Shown here: in pieces, positions 1 to 9,749 of the stretch
How the letters are laid out: each line of letters starts with the position of its first letter
Position numbering within the stretch: position 1 is the stretch's first letter
Assembly (NCBI RefSeq): GCF_011045215.1
Contig: NZ_CP049201.1
Source: Escherichia coli
GTDB taxonomy: Bacteria > Pseudomonadota > Gammaproteobacteria > Enterobacterales > Enterobacteriaceae
Length of the DNA: 64,000 bases
Direction: 5' to 3' (one strand)
Program-made: the position numbers and the translations under genes
Notes under the pieces: generated by a model
What the model was told of the DNA's origin: nothing
Databases searched by the model: none
What the model saw: only the letters and a program-made list of their open reading frames with translations

Positions 1-1
1 C

Positions 2-592
2 GGTAATCCTCCGGCATTTTCCCTGACATCAGACGGGAGACTGACGGCGAAAAATGCGGATATCAGTGGCAGTGTGAATGCGAACTCAGGAACGCTCAAC
101 AATGTCACGATTAACCAGAACTGTACGATTAAGGGCATGCTGGAGGCGACCCAGGTCAGAGGAGATTTCGTTAAAGCTGTATCAAAAGCCTTCCCGAAAA
201 AAGTCGGTACGTGGGGTAACACGGAAACACCAAACGGTACGGTTACAGTCACCATCAGCGATGATCATAACTTTGACCGCCAGATTATTATTCCGCCCAT
301 TATTTTTAACGGTATAGCGTATGACGATCCGGGGAGCGGAAATAACCCAGGAGGCACGCGATACACGGGTTATGGTTTTGAAGTTCGCAAAAACGGCGTA
401 TTAATCGCATCCAGAGAAACTAAAGGGGCCATTCCCGGTAGTTACAGTGCAGTTATTGATATGCCGAGTGGCAGGGGAAGCGTCACTCTGGAGTTTAAGA
501 TTTTCCAGAAAGGCAATCAGGGGGCAGGCAATATCACCGACTGTACGGTGATTGTGACCAAAAAAGCCGCTTCCGGCATCAGTATTCGTTGA
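2..592 (+). CDS. Phage tail tip / host specificity protein J, C-terminal part (5' end lies before the window)
   Basis: The reading frame is open from position 2 to the stop at 592. It is followed by lom, stf and tfa in the canonical lambda order J-lom-stf-tfa. Confidence 0.6.
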   Translation, partial: GNPPAFSLTSDGRLTAKNADISGSVNANSGTLNNVTINQNCTIKGMLEATQVRGDFVKAVSKAFPKKVGTWGNTETPNGTVTVTISDDHNFDRQIIIPPIIFNGIAYDDPGSGNNPGGTRYTGYGFEVRKNGVLIASRETKGAIPGSYSAVIDMPSGRGSVTLEFKIFQKGNQGAGNITDCTVIVTKKAASGISIR

Positions 593-614
593 AATATTTA
601 TAACCCCAATAAAG

Positions 615-638
615 GGCGTCAGGAATGACGCCTTTTTT
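615..638 (+). terminator. Rho-independent terminator after J
   Basis: 7-bp stem GGCGTCA/TGACGCC with GGAA loop, followed by a T6 run. Confidence 0.5.
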
Positions 639-662
639 ATTGCAGAAAAGCGAGAGGTAATT

Positions 663-1262
663 ATGCGTAAAGTTTGTGCAGCAATTTTGTCCGCAGCCAT
701 TTGTCTGGCCGTATCCGGTGCGCCTGCATGGGCGTCTGAACATCAGTCCACGCTGAGCGCGGGGTATCTTCATGCCTCGACGAACGTCCCCGGCAGTGAT
801 GATCTGAACGGGATTAACGTGAAATACCGTTATGAGTTTACGGACACACTGGGGCTGGTGACGTCATTCAGCTATGCAGGAGACAAGAATCGCCAGCTGA
901 CCCGTTACAGCGATACCCGCTGGCATGAAGATTCCGTTCGTAACCGCTGGTTCAGCGTAATGGCGGGGCCGTCTGTGCGCGTAAATGAATGGTTCAGCGC
1001 GTATGCGATGGCGGGTATGGCTTACAGCCGTGTGTCGACTTTCTCCGGGGATTATCTCCGCGTAACTGACAACAAGGGGAAAACGCACGACGTGCTGACC
1101 GGAAGTGATGACGGTCGCCACAGCAACACGTCTCTGGCGTGGGGAGCTGGCGTGCAGTTTAACCCGACCGAATCCGTGGCCATTGATATTGCTTATGAAG
1201 GCTCCGGCAGTGGCGACTGGCGCACTGACGGTTTCATCGTGGGTGTCGGTTATAAGTTCTGA
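663..1262 (+). CDS. lom: Lom-like outer membrane protein (Ail/Lom/OmpX beta-barrel family)
   Basis: 199 aa with a signal peptide (MRKVCAAILSAAICLAVSGAPAWA), alternating beta-strand pattern and C-terminal aromatic residue (GVGYKF). Position between J and stf matches lambda lom. Confidence 0.8.
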   Translation: MRKVCAAILSAAICLAVSGAPAWASEHQSTLSAGYLHASTNVPGSDDLNGINVKYRYEFTDTLGLVTSFSYAGDKNRQLTRYSDTRWHEDSVRNRWFSVMAGPSVRVNEWFSAYAMAGMAYSRVSTFSGDYLRVTDNKGKTHDVLTGSDDGRHSNTSLAWGAGVQFNPTESVAIDIAYEGSGSGDWRTDGFIVGVGYKF

Positions 1263-1290
1263 TTAGCCAGGTAACACAGTGTTATGACAG

Positions 1291-1316
1291 CCCGCCTGTT
1301 CAGGCGGGCTTTTTTG
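1291..1316 (+). terminator. Rho-independent terminator after lom
   Basis: GC-rich stem GCCCGCCTG/CAGGCGGGC followed by a T6 run. Confidence 0.55.
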
Positions 1317-1326
1317 TGGGGTGAAT

Positions 1327-4300
1327 ATGGCAGTAAAGATTTCAGGTGTACTGAAAGACGGCACAGGAAAACCGGTACAGAACTGCACAATCCAGCTGAA
1401 AGCAAAACGTAACAGCACCGCGGTGGTGGTGAACACGCTGGCCTCAGAAAATCCGGATGAAGCCGGGCGTTACAGCATGGACGTTGAGTACGGTCAGTAC
1501 AGCGTTATTCTGTTGGTGGAAGGATTCCCGCCGTCACATGCCGGGACCATCACCGTGTATGAAGATTCCCGACCCGGTACGCTGAATGATTTTCTCGGTG
1601 CCATGACGGAGGATGATGCCCGTCCGGAGGCTCTGCGCCGTTTTGAACTGATGGTGGAAGAGGTGGCGCGTAACGCGTCCGCGGTGGCACAGAACACGGC
1701 AGCCGCGAAGAAGTCAGCCGGCGATGCCGGCACATCTGCCCGTGAGGCGGCAACCCATGCGACTGATGCTGCAGGCTCAGCACGCGCAGCCAGCACGTCA
1801 GCCGGACAGGCCGCTTCGTCGGCTCAGTCAGCGTCTTCCAGCGCAGGAACGGCATCAACAAAGGCCACTGAAGCATCAAAAAGTGCTGCCGCTGCAGAGT
1901 CCTCAAAAAGCGCGGCAGCTACCAGTGCCAGTGCCGCGAAAACGTCAGAAACGAATGCTGCAGCGTCACAACAATCAGCAGCCACTTCTGCATCCACCGC
2001 GACCACGAAAGCGTCAGAAGCTGCCACCTCAGCCCGGGATGCGTCGGCTTCAAAAGAGGCGGCAAAATCATCAGAAACGAACGCATCCTCGAGCGCCAGT
2101 AGCGCATCTTCCTCGGCAACAGCGGCAGGAAATTCCGCGAAGGCGGCAAAAACGTCAGAGACGAACGCCAGGTCTTCTGAAACGGCAGCGGGACAGAGCG
2201 CCTCGGCTGCGGCAGGCTCAAAAACAGCGGCTGCGTCGTCTGCCAGTGCAGCGTCAACAAGTGCCGGGCAGGCCTCAGCCAGTGCCACCGCCGCCGGAAA
2301 ATCGGCAGAAAGCGCCGCATCGTCTGCTTCAACAGCCACAACGAAGGCTGGCGAAGCCACTGAACAGGCCAGCGCAGCAGCGAGGTCTGCTTCCGCAGCG
2401 AAGACATCCGAAACGAACGCGAAAGCGTCGGAAACCAGCGCAGAATCCTCAAAAACGGCTGCCGCATCGTCAGCCAGTTCGGCGGCGTCATCGGCATCAT
2501 CGGCGTCTGCTTCAAAAGATGAGGCGACCAGACAAGCGTCAGCAGCGAAGAGCAGCGCCACGACGGCATCCACGAAGGCGACAGAGGCTGCTGGCAGTGC
2601 GACGGCGGCAGCTCAGAGCAAAAGTACGGCGGAATCCGCGGCAACGCGCGCCGAGACAGCAGCTAAACGGGCAGAGGATATTGCATCCGCCGTGGCGCTT
2701 GAGGATGCAAGTACGACGAAAAAGGGGATAGTACAGCTCAGCAGTGCGACCAACAGTACGTCTGAAACGCTGGCGGCAACGCCAAAGGCAGTAAAATCAG
2801 CCTATGACAATGCAGAGAAACGTCTGCAGAAAGACCAGAACGGCGCTGATATACCCGATAAGGGATGCTTCCTGAACAACATTAACGCGGTCAGTAAAAC
2901 AGACTTTGCTGATAAGCGTGGTATGCGTTATGTGCGGGTTAACGCTCCTGCAGGTGCAACATCTGGAAAATATTACCCTGTTGTTGTTATGCGTTCTGCT
3001 GGCTCAGTAAGCGAACTGGCATCAAGAGTCATTATCACCACGGCAACGCGAACCGCAGGCGATCCGATGAATAACTGCGAGTTTAACGGATTTGTTATGC
3101 CTGGTGGCTGGACTGACAGGGGGCGTTATGCTTATGGCATGTTCTGGCAATATCAAAACAATGAACGAGCCATTCACTCAATAATGATGAGTAATAAGGG
3201 CGATGATTTGCGCTCTGTGTTCTATGTTGATGGCGCTGCTTTCCCTGTTTTTGCGTTTATTGAAGATGGCCTGTCAATATCCGCACCTGGTGCTGATCTC
3301 GTTGTTAATGATACGACCTATAAGTTTGGGGCAACAAATCCGGCGACTGAATGTATCGCGGCGGACGTTATCCTTGATTTTAAGAGTGGGCGTGGTTTTT
3401 ATGAGTCTCATTCGTTAATCGTTAACGATAACTTGTCGTGCAAAAAACTTTTTGCCACAGACGAAATTGTAGCGCGTGGTGGTAATCAGATTCGAATGAT
3501 AGGTGGGGAGTATGGGGCATTATGGCGTAATGATGGCGCTAAAACTTACCTGCTGCTTACCAATCAAGGTGATGTTTATGGTGGCTGGAATACATTAAGA
3601 CCGTTTGCTATTGATAACGCAACCGGCGAACTGGTTATTGGAACCAAACTGTCCGCAAGTCTGAACGGTAATGCATTAACAGCAACAAAGCTGCAAACGC
3701 CAAGACGGGTTTCTGGTGTTGAGTTTGATGGTTCCAAAGATATTACTTTAACCGCCGCGCATGTGGCTGCTTTTGCCAGAAGGGCAACGGATACATATGC
3801 CGATGCGGATGGTGGCGTTCCCTGGAATGCCGAATCAGGCGCTTATAATGTCACCCGCTCTGGCGACAGCTATATTCTGGTTAACTTCTATACCGGAGTC
3901 GGAAGTTGCCGGACCCTGCAGATGAAGGCGCATTACAGAAATGGTGGTCTGTTCTACCGTTCTTCAAGAGACGGTTATGGTTTTGAGGAAGACTGGGCAG
4001 AAGTTTATACCTCGAAAAATCTTCCACCAGAAAGCTACCCAGTCGGCGCACCAATCCCGTGGCCATCAGATACCGTTCCGTCTGGTTATGCCCAGATGCA
4101 GGGGCAGACTTTTGACAAATCTGCCTACCCGAAACTTGCAGCCGCTTATCCGTCAGGCGTGATCCCTGATATGCGTGGCTGGACGATTAAGGGCAAGCCC
4201 GCCAGTGGTCGTGCCGTATTGTCTCAGGAACAGGACGGCATTAAATCGCATACCCACAGCGCCAGCGCATCCAGTACGGATTTGGGTACGAAAACCACAT

Positions 4301-4728
4301 CGTCGTTTGATTACGGAACCAAATCCACGAATAACACCGGGGCGCATACCCATAGTATTAGCGGGACTGCAAATAGTGCCGGTGCGCACCAACACAAGAG
4401 TTCCGGTGCATTTGGTGGCACGAACACGAGCATTTTTCCTAATGGTTATACTGCGATTTCAAATCCAAGCGCGGGGATTATGAGCACAACAAGCGGTACT
4501 GGCCAGACTCGTAATGCAGGGAAGACATCATCAGATGGTGCTCATACCCACTCACTGTCCGGCACTGCTGCAAGCGCAGGTGCACACGCACATACTGTCG
4601 GTATTGGTGCTCATACGCACTCCGTTGCGATTGGTTCACATGGACACACCATCACCGTTAACGCTGCTGGTAACGCGGAAAACACCGTCAAAAACATCGC
4701 ATTTAACTATATTGTGAGGCTTGCATAA
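1327..4728 (+). CDS. stf: Side tail fiber protein (Stf family)
   Basis: Long ORF whose N-terminus ([26 protein letters not shown]...) matches the prophage side-tail-fiber family. It has an Ala/Ser/Thr-rich repeat tract and C-terminal GAHTHS-type repeats. ATG at 1327 is preferred over the GTG at 1321 used by the ORF track. Confidence 0.85.
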
Positions 4729-5309
4729 TGGCATTCAGAATGAGTGAACAACCACGGACCATAAAAATTTATAATCTGCTGGCCGGAACTAATGAATTTA
4801 TTGGTGAAGGTGACGCATATATTCCACCTCATACAGGTCTGCCAGCAAACAGTACCGATATTGCACCGCCAGATATTCCGGCAGGCTTCGTGGCTGTTTT
4901 CAACAGTGATGAGGCATCGTGGCATCTTGTTGAAGACCATCGGGGTAAAACGGTTTATGACGTGGCTTCCGGCGACGCGTTATTTATTTCTGAACTCGGC
5001 TTATTACCGGAAAATGTCACCTGGTTATCCCCGGAAGGGGAGTTTCAGAAGTGGAACGGCACAGCCTGGGTGAAAGATGCAGAAGCAGAAAAACTGTTCC
5101 GGATCCGGGAGGCGGAAGAAACAAAAAACAACCTGATGCAGGTAGCCAGTGAGCATATTGCGCCACTTCAGGATGCTGTAGATCTGGAAATCGCAACGGA
5201 GGAAGAAAACTCGTTGCTGGAAGCCTGGAAGAAGTATCGGGTGTTGCTGAACCGTGTTGATACATCAACTGCACCTGATATTGAGTGGCCTGTAATACCA
5301 GAAGTTTAA
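4728..5309 (+). CDS. tfa: Tail fiber assembly protein (Tfa)
   Basis: 193 aa; its start overlaps the stf stop (TAATG). Sequence and position are typical of lambdoid Tfa chaperones. Confidence 0.8.
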
Positions 5310-5314
5310 AATAA

Positions 5315-5340
5315 AAGCCCGCTTAAAATATCGCGGGCTT
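5315..5340. terminator. Bidirectional terminator hairpin between tfa (+) and the catalase gene (-)
   Basis: Stem AAGCCCGC/GCGGGCTT. On the minus strand it is followed by a T-rich tract (complement of TTTAAAATAAAA). Confidence 0.45.
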
Positions 5341-5428
5341 CGAAATATAAATGTATTTTCAGAGGCTAGAGCTTAGGATATCTCAGCGGCAATTAACTTA
5401 TGAGGGATAGCTAAATACCAGAAGATAA

Positions 5429-6319
5429 TTAGTTTTTACTATTTATCTTTGTTTGTGGTTCTCCTTCAGCAAGCTCAGCGCCAGTGACAGGATTGATGTC
5501 TTCATGGGATTTCAACCTTGTTGCCATAGCTTTTATCATAGCTTCTTGCTTGGTCGAAAGATTTATCGAGGCCTTCCCATCCCCACCGTCAACCGCTGGA
5601 ACTGGATCGGAAATATAGTCAAAGTTTTCATCACTGTTCCAACTACCTCTGACGTCTTCACCTTCTGACATGTTGTAATATACGTTTTTGTATTTCTCAA
5701 TTGGTGGTAATTTTCCTGGTGGAAAGGTGTTGCGAATTGAATGTAATGCTTTTTCAAATGAAAGCATGTGTGCTGCTTCCCTGGTCATTAAAAATGCCAG
5801 AGTGTCTTTTACTCCAGGATCATCAGTAACATTAATGAGACGTTCGTAAATGATCTTTGCCCGAGCTTCAGCTGCAATATTTGAACGAAGATCGGCCGTG
5901 ACTTCGCCAATAGTATCAACATAAGCTGCAGTCCAGGGTACTCCAGCTGAATTAGTTAATGCTGGGCCTCCTCCGTAGAGGAGAGAAGTTATATGGCTGT
6001 CATTGCCATTTTGAGTTAAGGAACGGTAAAGCTCAGCTTCATTCTCAGTTCCTTCAGCAAGTGCTCCTTTTGCACCTTTGTTGAGCATACCAACAAGAGA
6101 ACCAATAATTTCGAGATGACTTAGTTCTTCTGTTGCTATGTCCATCAGCATATCCCTTCGGCCTGCATCTTCATCACTTAAGCCTTGAGTGAAGTATCGG
6201 CATGCTGCTGCAAGCTCACCCTGTGGCCCGCCGAATTGTTCTAAAAGTAGATTAGCCAAGCCTGGGTTTGGCTCACTTACACGTACTGTATATTGAAGTT
6301 TTTTCACGTGTCTAAACAT
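5429..6319 (-). CDS. katN: Manganese (non-haem) catalase, KatN-like
   Basis: 296-aa protein with ferritin-like di-metal catalase features, resembling Salmonella KatN. A GAGGAGG ribosome-binding site lies 6-12 nt upstream. It is the last gene of a co-directional four-gene cluster. Confidence 0.8.
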   Translation of the reverse strand: MFRHVKKLQYTVRVSEPNPGLANLLLEQFGGPQGELAAACRYFTQGLSDEDAGRRDMLMDIATEELSHLEIIGSLVGMLNKGAKGALAEGTENEAELYRSLTQNGNDSHITSLLYGGGPALTNSAGVPWTAAYVDTIGEVTADLRSNIAAEARAKIIYERLINVTDDPGVKDTLAFLMTREAAHMLSFEKALHSIRNTFPPGKLPPIEKYKNVYYNMSEGEDVRGSWNSDENFDYISDPVPAVDGGDGKASINLSTKQEAMIKAMATRLKSHEDINPVTGAELAEGEPQTKINSKN

Positions 6320-6337
6320 AATGCCTCCTCAAAAGAA

Positions 6338-6844
6338 TTATTTTTTGGCTTCAACTCCATCAATTTCAGATCTGACCATGAATTGCTCAGTGGTGTCAGG
6401 AATATGGTTAAGAAGCCATTCAGCCATTTGTTTTTCTTCATTAAGAATTGCTTCAATAATGGGTACTGAAGCTGTATCACCCGCATTTTTGGCTGCTGCG
6501 AGAAGAGATGTGTAGCACGCAATTTCAAATTGTTCGAAAACATAGCCACTGATCGAACCTTTGACAATTTCATCAGATGGAAAAATTCCACCAATGGATT
6601 GCCCAAACGCGGCCATTTTACTCATAGAGTCTTTAATGACAGAGCGCGAAATATTATTACGATCAAGTATGCTTTCAAGCTGTGAAAGCTGGTTCTTTGT
6701 TTCGCTAATGTGCTGCTCAATTCTGGAACGTAACTCTGGATAGTTTTCTATCCGGCTGGCCATAGACTCAAGCATTTTTTCAGCTTGTTTCTCCATCGCA
6801 TGTGCATCACGAAGCCAGTCATGGTAATGTTCAATTCTATTCAT
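6338..6844 (-). CDS. yciE: YciE-like ferritin-like (DUF892) stress protein
   Basis: 168 aa; resembles YciE; tightly linked upstream of the catalase gene. Confidence 0.75.
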   Translation of the reverse strand: MNRIEHYHDWLRDAHAMEKQAEKMLESMASRIENYPELRSRIEQHISETKNQLSQLESILDRNNISRSVIKDSMSKMAAFGQSIGGIFPSDEIVKGSISGYVFEQFEIACYTSLLAAAKNAGDTASVPIIEAILNEEKQMAEWLLNHIPDTTEQFMVRSEIDGVEAKK

Positions 6845-6880
6845 AATCTGTTTATCCTAAAAGAAATTGAAGTCTATAGT

Positions 6881-7387
6881 TCAGGAGTTATCCTGAGCTT
6901 TTTTATTAACGTTATTAAATGCCAGGTCTGTTAATTTGACATCAGTAGCTTTTTCCTCTTCCAGTGTTTCTTTCAGGAGTTTAGCCGCTTTTTTATATCC
7001 TAATTGCTCAGCGAGTGTTACCAAAGTGCCATAACTGGCAATTTCATAGTGCTCTACTTTTTGTGCTGCAGCAATCAATGCAGCATCACGTACTTCATTT
7101 TTATCAGTGCTTTCAATTACCTCATTCGCCTCTTCGATAAGTCCTTCCATTGCGGCACACTTAATTCTTTTCAATTTAAGACCATCTTCAGAATCAACAA
7201 TCTGATCGATGCGTTCAATTTGACCATGTGTCTCATCAAGATGTGACTGAAAAGCAGCGGTTAATTTATCACTATATGCAGAGCGACTAAGTTTAGACAG
7301 TGCCTTTGTTAGTTGTTTCTCAGCGCTGTATGTATCCGATAATAAGTGGATGAAGATATCTTCAACAGATTTAATTTGCATAATCAC
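6881..7387 (-). CDS. yciF: YciF-like ferritin-like (DUF892) stress protein
   Basis: 168 aa; YciF-like sequence; same orientation and operon context. Confidence 0.75.
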   Translation of the reverse strand: MIMQIKSVEDIFIHLLSDTYSAEKQLTKALSKLSRSAYSDKLTAAFQSHLDETHGQIERIDQIVDSEDGLKLKRIKCAAMEGLIEEANEVIESTDKNEVRDAALIAAAQKVEHYEIASYGTLVTLAEQLGYKKAAKLLKETLEEEKATDVKLTDLAFNNVNKKAQDNS

Positions 7388-7400
7388 TCCAGAGTTTTCA

Positions 7401-7422
7401 CTGCGAGCCCGTAGGCTCGCAG
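7401..7422 (-). other. Perfect 9-bp stem hairpin between the yciG-like and yciF-like genes
   Basis: CTGCGAGCC-CGTA-GGCTCGCAG. No clear U-tract follows, so it is more likely an RNA stabiliser or partial attenuator than a full terminator. Confidence 0.3.
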
Positions 7423-7459
7423 TTAGCTTCAGTTATTCACGAATGTAGGGGATGATAAA

Positions 7460-7642
7460 TTAAGAGTCAGATTTACGGCCGCCACCATGGCTATTCTGAC
7501 CACCTTTTTTCCCTGCTTCTGATGCTCTTTGTGGATCGTTTTTAAAATTACCGCCACTATGTTGGCCGCCTTTACGACCAGCGTCAGAAGCTTTTTGTCG
7601 ATCTTCAGCGAAATTACCTGCACCGCCACGATGTTCGGTCAT
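7460..7642 (-). CDS. yciG: YciG-like KGG-repeat general stress protein
   Basis: 60 aa with repeated KGG and GGNF motifs (MTEHRGGAGNFAEDRQKASDAGRKGGQHSGGNFKNDPQRASEAGKKGG...); first gene of the cluster. Confidence 0.7.
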   Translation of the reverse strand: MTEHRGGAGNFAEDRQKASDAGRKGGQHSGGNFKNDPQRASEAGKKGGQNSHGGGRKSDS

Positions 7643-7707
7643 ATCATTTCTCCTCTGATTTTCAAATTGTAAATAACATGTGCCTTGTCAGCACCCAATT
7701 AACTTTA

Positions 7708-7770
7708 GTAACAAATAAGAAAGTGTCAAATAACAGATTGGTATGCGCATTTTGATGTGACAAATAACAG
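7708..7770. promoter_or_regulatory. Putative promoter/operator region of the yciG-like operon with direct repeats
   Basis: Two near-identical 14-mers, GTGTCAAATAACAG (7723-7736) and GTGACAAATAACAG (7757-7770), plus a partial third copy ACAAATAA (7711-7718), in AT-rich DNA just upstream of the yciG-like start. Confidence 0.3.
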
Positions 7771-7872
7771 TTGTAAAAAATATGTGCTCAGTGAGTATAA
7801 TTTATTGATATCTTAGTGATTAATGGGAAGTTTAGGTTGTAACTCAAAAGATTAATATACCCAAATTTACAT

Positions 7873-8211
7873 TTATATATTATTTGATGCTCCTGGTGTT
7901 GTTTTTCTCAATAAGAATACTCTGTAAAATAATTCAATCGTAAGATGGTGGTTATTCATATTTTTGAGATACTTCCTAATAGAGTCCATCCCTTGAATAA
8001 ATAATTGTTTTAAAATTTCGTCTAACAAACTAATTACAAAAACTTTTATATAACCCAAAGAATCATGATTATTCTTAATCGTCAAGATTTGACCGTAAAA
8101 ATTTAAGCACAGAAAATTGTGTGCAAGGATGTGTTGTTCAGTCTGTCGAACTTTCGATAGTTTGAGTATTAAATGATTTCCAGCCGTTATTGATTTTACG
8201 CGTAATTCCAT
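7873..8211 (-). CDS. Hypothetical protein (AT-rich orphan ORF, may be spurious)
   Basis: 112-aa ORF in a strongly AT-rich stretch between the stress operon and ydfJ. No recognisable motif and no obvious ribosome-binding site. Confidence 0.2.
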   Translation of the reverse strand: MELRVKSITAGNHLILKLSKVRQTEQHILAHNFLCLNFYGQILTIKNNHDSLGYIKVFVISLLDEILKQLFIQGMDSIRKYLKNMNNHHLTIELFYRVFLLRKTTPGASNNI

Positions 8212-8377
8212 AAAAAACTTATCTGTTGGAGAGTTATTTGGGGCATATATGGGACAGAAATCGGCCCCAGATAGACAGTGAGATCGATCTCAGGACGCTT
8301 TTGAAAAAATGCAACTATCTGAAAAAACGTAGAAAACGCCAAGGAACCCACAGGATGTGAAAAAACACCTGTGAATT

Positions 8378-9661
8378 ATGGATTTCCAGTTATATTCGCT
8401 CGGCGCAGCGTTGGTGTTTCATGAAATATTTTTTCCTGAATCATCAACGGCAATGGCGTTAATTCTGGCAATGGGAACCTACGGTGCAGGTTATGTCGCG
8501 CGTATTGTCGGAGCATTTATTTTCGGCAAAATGGGCGACAGAATAGGGCGTAAAAAAGTGCTCTTTATTACCATCACCATGATGGGGATCTGTACCACCT
8601 TAATTGGTGTGTTACCGACCTATGCACAGATTGGTGTTTTTGCACCCATCTTGCTGGTGACGCTGCGTATTATTCAGGGATTGGGTGCAGGTGCGGAAAT
8701 TTCCGGTGCCGGTACGATGCTGGCGGAATATGCGCCAAAAGGTAAGCGCGGAATTATCTCCTCATTTGTGGCTATGGGAACTAACTGCGGAACCTTAAGC
8801 GCAACGGCAATCTGGGCCTTTATGTTCTTCATTCTCAGTAAAGAGGAACTGCTGGCGTGGGGATGGCGTATACCGTTCCTGGCGAGCGTTGTCGTGATGG
8901 TCTTTGCTATCTGGTTGCGTATGAATCTGAAAGAAAGCCCGGTCTTTGAGAAGGTTAACGACAGCAACCAACCAACAGCAAAACCTGCACCTGCTGGTAG
9001 CATGTTCCAGAGCAAATCCTTCTGGCTGGCAACAGGGCTGCGTTTTGGTCAGGCAGGTAACTCCGGATTAATTCAGACTTTCCTTGCAGGCTATTTAGTG
9101 CAGACGTTATTGTTTAACAAAGCAATTCCAACAGATGCATTGATGATCAGTTCGATTCTCGGCTTTATGACCATTCCGTTCCTTGGTTGGTTATCCGATA
9201 AAATTGGTCGCCGGATCCCGTATATTATTATGAATACCTCCGCGATTGTGCTGGCATGGCCAATGCTTTCTATCATCGTAGATAAAAGCTATGCCCCGAG
9301 CACCATTATGGTTGCACTGATTGTGATTCATAACAGTGCGGTGCTGGGATTATTTGCTCTGGAAAATATTACCATGGCAGAAATGTTTGGTTGTAAAAAC
9401 CGCTTTACCCGGATGGCTATTTCAAAAGAAATTGGTGGTCTTATCGCTTCCGGTTTTGGTCCTATCCTGGCAGGTATTTTCTGCACCATGACGGAATCCT
9501 GGTATCCGATCGCCATTATGATCATGGCATATTCAGTGATTGGTTTAATCTCTGCGCTGAAAATGCCAGAAGTGAAAGACCGTGATTTAAGTGCGCTGGA
9601 AGACGCTGCGGAAGATCAACCGCGTGTTGTAAGAGCTGCGCAACCTTCCAGAAGTCTGTAA
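8378..9661 (+). CDS. ydfJ: MFS transporter YdfJ (apparently N-terminally truncated)
   Basis: 427 aa with an MFS signature (GKMGDRIGRKK loop). The first transmembrane region expected in this family appears to be missing, consistent with a gene interrupted at a prophage junction. Confidence 0.85.
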   Translation: MDFQLYSLGAALVFHEIFFPESSTAMALILAMGTYGAGYVARIVGAFIFGKMGDRIGRKKVLFITITMMGICTTLIGVLPTYAQIGVFAPILLVTLRIIQGLGAGAEISGAGTMLAEYAPKGKRGIISSFVAMGTNCGTLSATAIWAFMFFILSKEELLAWGWRIPFLASVVVMVFAIWLRMNLKESPVFEKVNDSNQPTAKPAPAGSMFQSKSFWLATGLRFGQAGNSGLIQTFLAGYLVQTLLFNKAIPTDALMISSILGFMTIPFLGWLSDKIGRRIPYIIMNTSAIVLAWPMLSIIVDKSYAPSTIMVALIVIHNSAVLGLFALENITMAEMFGCKNRFTRMAISKEIGGLIASGFGPILAGIFCTMTESWYPIAIMIMAYSVIGLISALKMPEVKDRDLSALEDAAEDQPRVVRAAQPSRSL

Positions 9662-9669
9662 ATCCTCAA

Positions 9670-9699
9670 TCCCTTCTCTTACCGGAGAGGGGATTTTTA
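9670..9699 (+). terminator. Putative terminator after ydfJ
   Basis: Imperfect hairpin CCCTTCTCTTACCGGAGAGGGG followed by ATTTTTAT. Confidence 0.35.
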
Positions 9700-9749
9700 T
9701 CCATATAACAAAACATGTAGCTTGCCATATTTAAATTTAAGGAATTGTT

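Follow-up and report, generated by a model that had tools for sequence, protein, structure and literature searches.

The window analyzed here, a stretch of 64,000 nt from Escherichia coli (RefSeq assembly GCF_011045215.1, contig NZ_CP049201.1), carries the end of a lambdoid tail operon. ORFs for the J C-terminus (74-592) and for Lom (663-1262) are followed by stf, an stfR-like side tail fiber gene (1321..4728, plus strand), and by tfa (4728..5309, plus strand), which specifies the tail fiber assembly chaperone and is named tfaQ or tail fiber assembly protein in matching genomes. Records of lambda and E. coli agree with this J-lom-stf-tfa order at the operon end. Counted from the GTG at 1321, the stf ORF encodes 1,135 aa. 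The true start is likely the ATG at 1327 (MAVKIS), which lambda shares; residue numbers used throughout run from the GTG, and subtraction of 2 converts them to lambda numbering. Features within stf lie on the plus strand unless otherwise indicated. When the N-terminal part of the gene (nt 1321-2900; 1,580 nt) served as the query, it proved 99.9% identical to an E. coli gene annotated as stfR, and matches to it, at roughly 16,000 places, were found in 4,950 of 5,426 complete E. coli genomes. The prophage copy of stf in the window adjoins ydfJ (Qin locus), and that of the best-matching genome adjoins pinR/ydfK.

Pfam matches in Stf comprise phage_tail_N (aa 3-136), Gp34_trimer (aa 665-764), and Collar (aa 909-956). 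The first of them (PF08400; E = 3e-71) marks the N-terminal collar domain that characterizes lambdoid Stf/StfR proteins. The StfN collar domain itself, i.e., the tail anchor of the fiber, spans aa 3-96 (1327..1608), as delimited with phmmer (E = 1e-50 to residues 1-94 of the "Tail fiber protein" in PDB 9e7m/9mgh) and the description by Yu et al. (2025). Next comes a short Pro-containing linker, EDDARPE (aa 97-103; 1609..1629), which is the counterpart of lambda residues 92-101 and after which a heptad register starts. In the sequence layout, the heptads stop at a conserved post-tract unit (aa 461-495; 2701..2805) that is present as a tandem duplicate in P0001-type alleles. The segment from the tract end through this unit (aa 442-523) matches residues 90-172 of the Mu tail fiber S (PDB 5yvq). 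The protein ends in a T4 gp37-like receptor-binding tip (aa 904-1135; 4030..4725; phmmer E = 2e-82 to PDB 2xgf). Such a gp37-related distal tip, together with a Tfa chaperone gene downstream, further characterizes lambdoid Stf.

The region between the linker and the post-tract unit consists of 51 heptads (aa 104-460; 1630..2700), the last 49 of which (aa 118-460; nt 1672-2700) are of the S-A-x-x-A-x-x type. Between aa 151 and 450, Ala, Ser, and Thr make up 72-80% of every 50-aa block, which confirms the Ala/Ser/Thr-rich tract of about 1 kb that a previous sequence-only reading had placed within this gene. The quasi-periodicity claimed in that reading also goes beyond compositional bias, with a residue autocorrelation of 0.38-0.46 at all lags divisible by 7 as far as lag 98, compared with 0.22 in shuffles (z = 7-10). 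Laid out in sevens, the sequence forms 49 S-A-x-x-A-x-x rows with zero register shifts. Position 5 is Ala in 47 of these rows (96%) and Val in the remaining two, Ser fills position 1 in 37 of 49, with Asn, Lys, or Gln as occasional replacements, and Ala fills position 2 in 35 of 49. At both tract ends, Leu, Phe, Met, Val, and Ile are found at positions 5, 1, and 2. The dominant unit is SAxxAxx, with a period of 7, instead of the SAxxSAS formerly suggested.

SETNA does have four occurrences, which lie 42, 28, and 84 aa apart (all divisible by 7), but the fuller motif KTSETNA, for which four copies had been counted, is exact in only three. These are a heptad-spanning copy assigned to DNA repeat family D3 (aa 207-213; 1939..1959), a second one at aa 277-283 (2149..2169), and a third one at aa 361-367 (2401..2421); the fourth is a KSSETNA near copy (aa 249-255; 2065..2085). 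Literature searches for "SETNA" returned only unrelated text matches. No super-period above 7 aa (14, 28, 77, 105, or 112 aa) was robust to heptad-order and column-preserving shuffles. Of the 34 lags tried, 11 and 22 heptads scored highest (z = 2.7-2.9), and the top diagonal score of 17 compares with a null of 12.6 +/- 2.5.

The most probable interpretation, to which we assign a probability of about 0.88, is that the Ala/Ser/Thr tract forms the proximal shaft, a coiled coil, of a lambdoid side tail fiber, that the nucleotide features of the region are side effects, and that the shaft evolves by rare changes of whole heptads. The heptad pattern, which is the actual explanation of the periodicity, went unnoticed in the sequence-only reading. 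In Ur-lambda, gpStf is divided into gpStfN (residues 1-91), which forms a dodecameric collar, a "flexible linker" (92-101), and a proximal coiled-coil (102-393) (Yu et al., 2025, Sci Adv, PMC12617516). Cryo-EM/cryo-ET and AlphaFold3 describe its proximal part as a trimer, and in tomograms the proximal rod is rigid and moves as a rigid body (PMC12617516). In the Stf of the window, the approximately 357 residues that follow the collar domain and the short linker (aa 104-460) run in uninterrupted heptads, whose positions 5 (Ala), 1 (Ser), and 2 (Ala) would line an alpha-helix with a single seam of small residues. Winding together by these seams, three Stf chains would form a parallel trimeric coiled coil, a thin and stiff rod that would keep the T4-gp37-like tip, along with the hinge and the distal rod, at a distance from the tail. 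With a rise of about 0.148 nm per residue, the rod would measure roughly 53 nm. The trimeric coiled-coil state and the proximal-rod role are predicted by analogy with the lambda homologue, for which the literature describes them.

Several features of the protein are those of a coiled coil. Heptad periodicity is maintained in one phase over 49 heptads with no register breaks, and apolar or small residues lie 3 and 4 positions apart, as in an a/d seam, in what would be an unusually polar/small core; the seam positions probably correspond to a and d. A single-sequence AF2 model of the monomer is helical over aa 100-253, 265-380, and 398-506 (model residues 6-159, 171-286, and 304-412), with a pLDDT mostly of 70-87 in the helices and two low-confidence turns between them. 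The modeled monomer folds back into an antiparallel three-helix bundle with a pTM of 0.27 and was taken as informative of helicity only, not of architecture. The designation "coiled coil" is a model-dependent one, drawn from the heptad pattern and from the lambda model, in which AlphaFold3 predictions were fitted into tomographic density of limited resolution. Ala/Ser cores are atypical among coiled coils.

A disordered low-complexity Ala/Ser/Thr linker, mucin-like or acting as an entropic spacer with no folded rod, would share the observed composition (72-80% Ala+Ser+Thr) and would fit with the failure of aa 97-441 to match any PDB chain in phmmer searches and of aa 137-441 to match any Pfam family. 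However, such a spacer would not be expected to hold a strict register through 49 units, with Ala at one of the positions in 96% of them, or to preserve this register across length variants. The continuous helices in the AF2 model and the rigid proximal rod in the Ur-lambda tomograms (PMC12617516) also speak against disorder, as does purifying selection on the tract (dN/dS of approximately 0.16-0.25, the lambda-based estimate leaving out the segment downstream of a 315-nt gap in the alignment). We thus regard a disordered linker as highly improbable.

At the DNA level, the tract had been described as a GC-rich imperfect tandem array. It is indeed GC-rich (0.58-0.64 versus 0.42-0.55 in the flanks) and weakly periodic, with an identity of 45% at lag 21 nt compared with 36% in codon shuffles (z = 7). 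The array itself did not hold up. Tandem Repeats Finder, run on nt 1-6000 with a minimum score of 30, detected no array and only a single 22-nt 9-mer repeat, and identity at multiples of 21 nt was indistinguishable from that of synonymous-codon shuffles that keep the protein (z of 1.4 to -1.3). The 21-nt periodicity is therefore wholly an imprint of the protein repeat. High GC content, the excess of A over T, the 21-nt periodicity, and the additional ORFs discussed below would all be by-products of the use of GCN, TCN/AGY, ACN, AAA, and GAA codons.

The sequence-only reading further considered the tract prone to recombinational expansion or contraction. In its strong form, this idea would make the tract a VNTR or contingency locus, with frequent shifts in copy number through slippage or through unequal exchange mediated by RecA. 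Detectable 21-nt periodicity, whole-heptad differences in length among homologues, and indel junctions on short direct repeats are compatible with this idea. Nonetheless, the longest exact direct repeat within the 1,029-nt tract is 12 nt, and efficient RecA recombination needs roughly 20-30 bp, which counts against such proneness. Beyond the lack of a TRF array and of any excess identity over synonymous shuffles, there are no head-to-tail DNA units with a similarity exceeding coding constraint; adjacent segments resemble each other no more than shuffled heptads do, and no recent tandem duplication was seen. Copy-number polymorphism is infrequent among close homologues, since 114 of the 117 that have both anchors show exactly the same tract length, and alignments with thousands of E. 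coli genomes, at 95-99% identity, contain no gaps. The tract is not a slippage-prone VNTR, and frequent copy-number change is an unlikely account of its history.

Changes in length are rare but real, and both short in-phase microhomologies and exchange with other fiber genes play a part in them. The best 120 protein homologues listed for Stf are near-identical E. coli fragments, so that diversity was drawn from a search of representatives in which the N-terminal domain was the query. Across 150 phage_tail_N family representatives, the tract extends from a few to 49 heptads, from a common start residue and mostly with no register shifts. Anchor-to-anchor distances of 132, 139, 153, 244, 251, and 356 aa, each equal to 6 modulo 7, account for 18 of 21 proteins; the rule is broken in a few members, with distances of 103 and 148 aa and variants of +/-3 aa. 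All four indels mapped at the DNA level (315, 315, 336, and 672 nt) are divisible by 21. Copy-number comparison among homologous stf genes, proposed in the sequence-only reading, thus uncovers whole-heptad differences, though rare ones, and its suggestion that the tract sets the shaft length gains support from these differences and from the match with the Ur-lambda proximal rod.

Protein and DNA alignments delimit one 315-nt segment (15 heptads; 2235..2549) that is present here and missing from lambda stf. The origin of these 15 heptads in a recent tandem duplication was considered and rejected, as no super-period is robust (best z of 2.7-2.9). The three indel junctions that do not involve lambda fall on exact in-phase microhomologies of 9, 11, and 8 nt, and just 1.0% of in-phase position pairs lie within exact runs of at least 8 nt. 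An 11-nt exact repeat, GAAACGAACGC (2074/2410), marks the junction in a natural variant that has a 336-nt deletion. Exact repeats of at least 8 nt number 27 in phase versus 31 in frame but out of phase, and those of at least 11 nt number 6 versus 1; the in-phase bias of indels may therefore stem in part from the placement of microhomologies and not from selection. With a DNA identity of 91-95%, the variants that lack 15-32 of the heptads are not recent.

On evolutionary timescales, the rod would grow, shrink, or re-join other fibers by whole heptads through rare recombination at short in-phase microhomologies, e.g., at the KTSETNA-coding motif, and any in-register join would leave the coiled coil continuous. 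This tolerance is probably the reason for fiber mosaicism. A 116-nt segment of the tract (2053..2168; blastn) that is approximately 82% identical to T5 ltf (pb1) constitutes the crossover zone of natural chimeras; the second KTSETNA copy lies at its right end, where mEp460-type alleles diverge. In mEp460, stf nt 1-848 is 94.7% identical to the window, and nt 733-978 is 81.7% identical to T5 pb1; this stf is a natural chimera whose crossover lies in window nt 2053-2168. Literature searches on fiber mosaicism, coiled coils, and shaft length yielded nothing relevant.

Spurious long ORFs on the opposite strand and in another frame, anticipated in the sequence-only reading, are readily found. A +1 frame ORF of 335 aa, rich in Arg, Pro, and Gln (1724..2731, plus strand), belongs to no Pfam or PHROG family in the searches made, and its frame stays free of stops in every synonymous permutation (100%). 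An antisense ORF of 249 aa (1824..2573, minus strand), open to the same extent in 71-74% of permutations, matches phrog_560 ("unknown function"; E = 6e-123) and is the counterpart of lambda orf206b, which is annotated in the same frame according to a derivation by hand from the coordinates. The +1 and -1 frames are open because of the amino acid sequence alone, since synonymous shuffles reproduce their openness. A second antisense ORF of 241 aa, rich in Leu, Arg, Trp, and Pro (1919..2644, minus strand), is more open than codon shuffles predict, its frame containing 2 stops where 9.1 +/- 2.4 are expected under synonymous permutation (P < 0.002).

This deficit, the presence of 0 stops in the same frame of lambda and Cyrano, and the existence of annotated antisense ORFs (lambda orf206b) that form PHROG families 560 and 3324 could be taken to mean that there is a genuine overlapping gene among the long alternative-frame ORFs, with 1919-2644 as the foremost candidate, and that it shapes codon choice in the tract. 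Nevertheless, dS versus lambda is 0.378 in the tract and 0.382 in the N-terminal domain, with no drop over the antisense ORFs, even though each third-position change hits the second codon position of the 1919-2644 frame. This open frame is not kept in diverged homologues, the tracts of SSU5 and T5 having 8-9 stops there, and the Leu/Arg/Trp/Pro-rich translations have no Pfam match. Depletion of CT|A is general (ratio of 0.80 in the other ORFs of the window), and correction for it leaves a stop deficit of only about P = 0.05. An antisense gene in frame -2, suggested by the stop deficit, was rejected on account of dS and lack of conservation. An overlapping gene is scarcely credible here; the alternative-frame ORFs are compositional by-products without coding constraint, like lambda orf206b and phrog_560.

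The chief value of these findings lies in annotation hygiene and context. Annotators should treat the tract neither as a hypervariable DNA repeat nor as low-complexity junk, and lambda orf206b, phrog_560, and phrog_3324 are artefact ORFs in databases that should not count as genes of unknown function. Since the length of natural variants changes only in whole heptads and chimeras found in nature have their crossovers inside the tract, in-register fusion points should be safe. In-register fusion within the tract could thus be used in engineering to graft receptor-binding ends or to alter fiber reach. The Nature 2024 paper on chimeric STFs gives no details on fusion points inside the tract.

The shaft nature of the tract is already known from phage lambda; it is real but ordinary and leaves the current view of lambdoid fibers unchanged. 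The proximal domain of Ur-lambda gpStf shares 83% of its protein sequence and approximately 85% of its DNA sequence with the present allele outside a single 105-aa (15-heptad) gap, and it has the same arrangement of StfN, linker, S-A-x-x-A-x-x heptads with KTSETNA motifs, and a common post-tract unit. Unlike the present allele, with 49 such heptads, it has 34, and the extra 315 nt at 2235-2549 would make the rod described here about 15 nm longer than that of lambda. The part distal to the tract is also longer here and includes a gp34-like trimerization domain. In contrast, stfR-type genes from lambdoid phages and prophages of E. coli (e.g., ev099, PhiR34_1, and Kati) show no substantive difference from the present stf, aligning gap-free over nt 1321-2900 with 95-99.9% identity and thus having an equal number of heptads.

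Outside the lambdoid Stf proteins, S-A-x-x-A-x-x tracts with recurrent SETNA are found in T5 pb1 (Ltf) and in the SSU5-like and Cyrano fibers, with 22, 40, and 44 heptads, respectively, and DNA similarity of the tract reaches 82% over 116 nt in T5 and 91% over 825 nt in Cyrano. These fibers differ from Stf in their N-terminal anchors, which lack PF08400, and in their distal ends, those of T5 and SSU5 carrying an S74 intramolecular chaperone; they attach to the tail via other proteins, e.g., the T5 p132 collar. A strict register and recurring, DNA-conserved KTSETNA-type heptads would let unrelated fibers swap modules. It is conceivable, if rather doubtful, that the Ser/Ala tract, beyond any role as a passive spacer, serves as a shared "universal adaptor" of enterobacterial fibers (lambda-type Stf, T5 pb1, and SSU5/Cyrano-type) that permits swaps of the distal receptor-binding module and tuning of the rod in 1-nm steps by rare in-phase recombination, with rod length adapted to O-antigen or capsule thickness. 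A weaker extension of this idea is that avoidance of NCT|A junctions could reflect selection on the DNA or RNA of the tract.

In its general working, and not by any known sequence relationship, the proposed shaft can be likened to trimeric alanine-zipper coiled coils such as E. coli Lpp-56 and to segmented trimeric phage rods such as T4 fibritin. Both are parallel three-stranded helical rods in which the heptad count sets the length, and the cores of rods of this kind can consist of small residues. Compared with them, Ser at the second core position and an extreme, stutter-free length are particular to the fiber tract.

The Ala/Ser/Thr-rich tract lies inside stf where the sequence-only reading had placed it (Ala, Ser, and Thr make up 72-80% of residues 151-450), and its periodicity goes beyond compositional bias. 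Residue autocorrelation reaches 0.38-0.46 at all lags divisible by 7 through lag 98, against 0.14-0.26 at other lags and 0.22 in the shuffled tract (z = 7-10 for multiples of 7). Set out seven residues to a row, aa 118-460 (nt 1672-2700; numbered from the GTG at nt 1321, with lambda numbering equal to these positions minus 2) form 49 successive S-A-x-x-A-x-x heptads with zero register shifts. Ala fills position 5 in 47 of the 49 (Val in the remaining two), Ser fills position 1 in 37 (otherwise Lys, Asn, Gln, His, Ala, or Ile), and Ala fills position 2 in 35 (otherwise Lys or Glu). This run is preceded, from aa 104, by two extra heptads in which Leu, Phe, Met, and Val occupy the same positions. 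The motif KTSETNA, said to recur four times, has only three exact copies (aa 207, 277, and 361), accompanied by one KSSETNA (aa 249); the four SETNA copies are spaced 42, 28, and 84 residues apart, all in register. No convincing higher-order repeat above the heptad was found in the tract.

At the DNA level, the description of a GC-rich imperfect tandem array was borne out only in part. The tract is GC rich (0.58-0.64), with A strongly exceeding T, and has a 21-nt periodicity (lag identity of 45% versus 36% in codon shuffles; z = 7), but Tandem Repeats Finder returned no array. When the protein was held fixed and synonymous codons were permuted, the DNA periodicity was gone (z from 1.4 to -1.3 at lags 21 to 126). 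Across the 1029 nt, exact direct repeats extend to at most 12 nt, with none as long as 14 nt. This vanishing under synonymous permutation, together with the short exact repeats and the lack of a higher-order unit, identifies the DNA periodicity as a property of the protein. A DNA tandem repeat locus was accordingly rejected on Tandem Repeats Finder, synonymous permutation, and exact-repeat length alike; the synonymous sites of the tract are randomized, and it is not a recently amplified or homogenized DNA array.

The three long ORFs attributed to the other frame and the opposite strand all appear in the ORF listing, and their dismissal as spurious is supported. All synonymous permutations (100%) leave the +1 frame without stops, and 71-74% of them reach the observed openness of the -1 antisense frame, which makes both ORFs automatic by-products. 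The reference annotation of lambda holds the same artifact as orf206b (L001, 2653-3273). The antisense ORFs 1824-2573(-) and 1919-2644(-), in frames -1 and -2, respectively, have no Pfam match; the former aligns along its entire length with the PHROG family phrog_560 ("unknown function"; E = 6e-123), and the latter matches phrog_3324 (E = 7e-24). The entries orf206b, phrog_560, and phrog_3324 are probably database contamination by non-genes.

The -2 antisense frame contains 2 stops versus 9.1 ± 2.4 expected under synonymous permutation, a deficit that persists if the permutation is confined to heptad columns (10.3 ± 2.4 expected). This frame is open because NCT codons almost never precede a codon starting with A; over 1672-2700, such CT-A junctions (GCT, TCT, or ACT followed by A) occur twice against 9-10 expected, and their scarcity leaves the frame of 1919-2644 open for 247 codons. 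CT-A depletion is only mild (ratio of 0.80) in the window's other long ORFs, and the stop deficit left after this general bias is borderline (about P = 0.05 for this sequence). Each synonymous third-position change in stf is nonsynonymous in the -2 antisense frame, yet synonymous divergence (dS) measured against lambda is 0.378 for the tract versus 0.382 for the N-terminal domain. The tracts of SSU5 and T5 carry 8-9 stops in this frame. Neither comparison detected coding constraint from an overlapping gene in the tract; a coding explanation is unlikely, and the CT-A junction bias is recorded as a minor feature.

The gene itself sits in the terminal part of a lambdoid tail operon with which the window opens: the J C-terminus (74-592), lom (663-1262), stf (1321-4728; 1135 aa), and tfa (4728-5309). 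The mechanical stf ORF starts at GTG 1321 (MNMAVKIS), whereas lambda Stf and the PDB sequences begin at the Met of ATG 1327, which is likely the real start (MAVKIS, as in lambda). Pfam assigns phage_tail_N (aa 3-136), a gp34-type trimerization domain (aa 665-764), and a Collar domain (aa 909-956), with no domain at aa 137-664. In a PDB sequence search, the N-terminal 94 residues matched the lambda Stf collar domain (9e7m/9mgh; E = 1e-50) and residues 904-1135 the T4 gp37 tip (2xgf; E = 2e-82), with no matching chain for residues 97-441. Over its first 1580 nt, the gene shares 99.9% identity with an E. coli chromosomal gene annotated stfR, and matches turned up in 4950 of 5426 complete E. coli genomes. 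By every defining feature tested, the tract-bearing gene is a member of the Stf/StfR family, and sequence identity indicates an allele essentially the same as thousands of database copies. Beyond tfa, the DNA corresponds to the ydfJ (Qin) region of, among others, E. coli 55989. Right after tfa, 5429-9700 carries a manganese-catalase family gene (5429-6319, minus strand), ferritin-like/YciE-YciF stress genes, and ydfJ, an arrangement with at least 80% query coverage in only 5 complete-E. coli-genome records, including 55989. At the best stf match elsewhere, pinR/ydfK come next, and the stfR copy is annotated as frameshifted.

Among 150 representatives (50% identity clusters) of family members with the N-terminal domain, the tract begins at an identical residue and counts from a few to 49 heptads (commonly 17-19, 22-27, 31-34, and 48-49), mostly without register shifts. 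As an alignment-free measure, the spacing between two flanking motifs, EEVAR ahead of the tract and G[IV]V.LS behind it, was taken. In 18 of 21 proteins it was 132, 139, 153, 244, 251, or 356, values that all equal 6 mod 7; the exceptional values were 103 and 148. In four variants mapped on the window DNA, every gap is an exact multiple of 21 nt, each in a different place: lambda lacks 315 nt (2235-2549), and the homologous alleles P0134, P0141, and P0146 lack 315 nt (1936-2250), 336 nt (2059-2394), and 672 nt (1805-2476). The three non-lambda junctions sit on exact in-phase microhomologies, namely, TGCCAGTGC, GAAACGAACGC (a SETNA-coding motif), and CGTCAGCC, and exact runs of at least 8 nt cover only 1.0% of in-phase position pairs. 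In-phase gaps and microhomology junctions support the proposal that recombination between internal repeats alters copy number, as an evolutionary process but not a frequent one, since 114 of 117 close homologues are equal in length. The length variants have diverged by 5-9% in DNA, and efficient homologous recombination needs far longer homology than these microhomologies. Exact repeats of at least 8 nt are roughly as common in phase as in frame but out of phase (27 versus 31), and those of at least 11 nt number 6 versus 1, so that register selection and mutational opportunity are not fully separable as sources of in-phase indels. In some E. coli alleles (P0001 type), a unit just past the heptad tract is duplicated in tandem, adding 44 aa after window aa ~470 (nt ~2730), which accounts for the +132-nt blastn matches H9 and H11. 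The stf of phage D2 (L006, 3156-5087) has only ~18 heptads and seems to slip register by 1 residue at aa ~172-180; mobile-element genes directly adjoin it downstream, so the fiber may be truncated or disrupted.

The S-A-x-x-A-x-x tract with recurrent SETNA heptads also occurs in T5 pb1 (22 heptads near the N-terminus, aa 53-206), the SSU5 fiber (40 heptads), and the phage Cyrano fiber (44 heptads; 91% DNA identity to window nt 1860-2684), which lack the PF08400 anchor and differ from the window Stf at their distal ends. The mEp460 stf (L004, 3150-6758) is 94.7% identical to the window as far as nt 2168, is 82% identical to T5 pb1 from 116 nt before that point, and terminates in a T5-like Peptidase_S74 chaperone domain. 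Its product is a natural chimera of a lambda-type N-terminal anchor and first 24 heptads followed by T5 pb1-like heptads. The crossover falls within 2053-2168, 116 nt common to the window, mEp460, and T5 ltf (L002, 4153-8343) with KTSETNA at the end, and similarity to the window breaks off exactly at 2168 in several other phages and E. coli genomes as well. Tail-fiber genes have long been pictured as mosaic, and a crossover in a shared segment fits this picture. It suggests that an in-register join anywhere along the coiled coil would give a functional rod.

Alpha-helical coiled coils are recognized by a strict heptad in which small residues recur at spacings of 3 and 4. In the tract, the most conserved positions 5, 1, and 2 would correspond to a, d, and e, and the Asn found at position 1 in the two opening heptads would be compatible with a trimer. 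A single-chain AF2 model of aa 95-520 places helices at 100-253, 265-380, and 398-506 (pLDDT mostly 70-87), broken by two low-confidence turns where the monomer folds back on itself. We treat this fold-back as an artifact of single-chain modeling; the same trouble was reported for the full-length lambda fiber by Yu et al. 2025 (PMC12617516), who resolved the Ur-lambda side fibers by cryo-EM, cryo-ET, and AlphaFold3 as trimers whose proximal domain moves as a rigid body. In their model, gpStfN covers residues 1-91, a flexible linker 92-101, and the proximal coiled coil 102-393. Over the tract region, the window protein is 83% identical to lambda Stf, with a single gap of exactly 105 residues. 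This alignment and the published Ur-lambda structure together identify the tract, by homology, as the predicted proximal coiled-coil shaft, 15 heptads longer than that of lambda. At the canonical helical rise of ~0.148 nm per residue, its 357 residues would span ~53 nm versus ~37 nm in lambda, a computed rather than measured length.

The sequence-only reading described a real feature at the right place, one that the literature already explains; in-phase indels, microhomology junctions, and a joint common with T5-type fibers are tidy illustrations that hold no surprises. The tract works in the same way as the published lambda proximal coiled coil. By analogy only, it also resembles alanine-zipper trimers such as Lpp-56 and segmented phage rods such as T4 fibritin.
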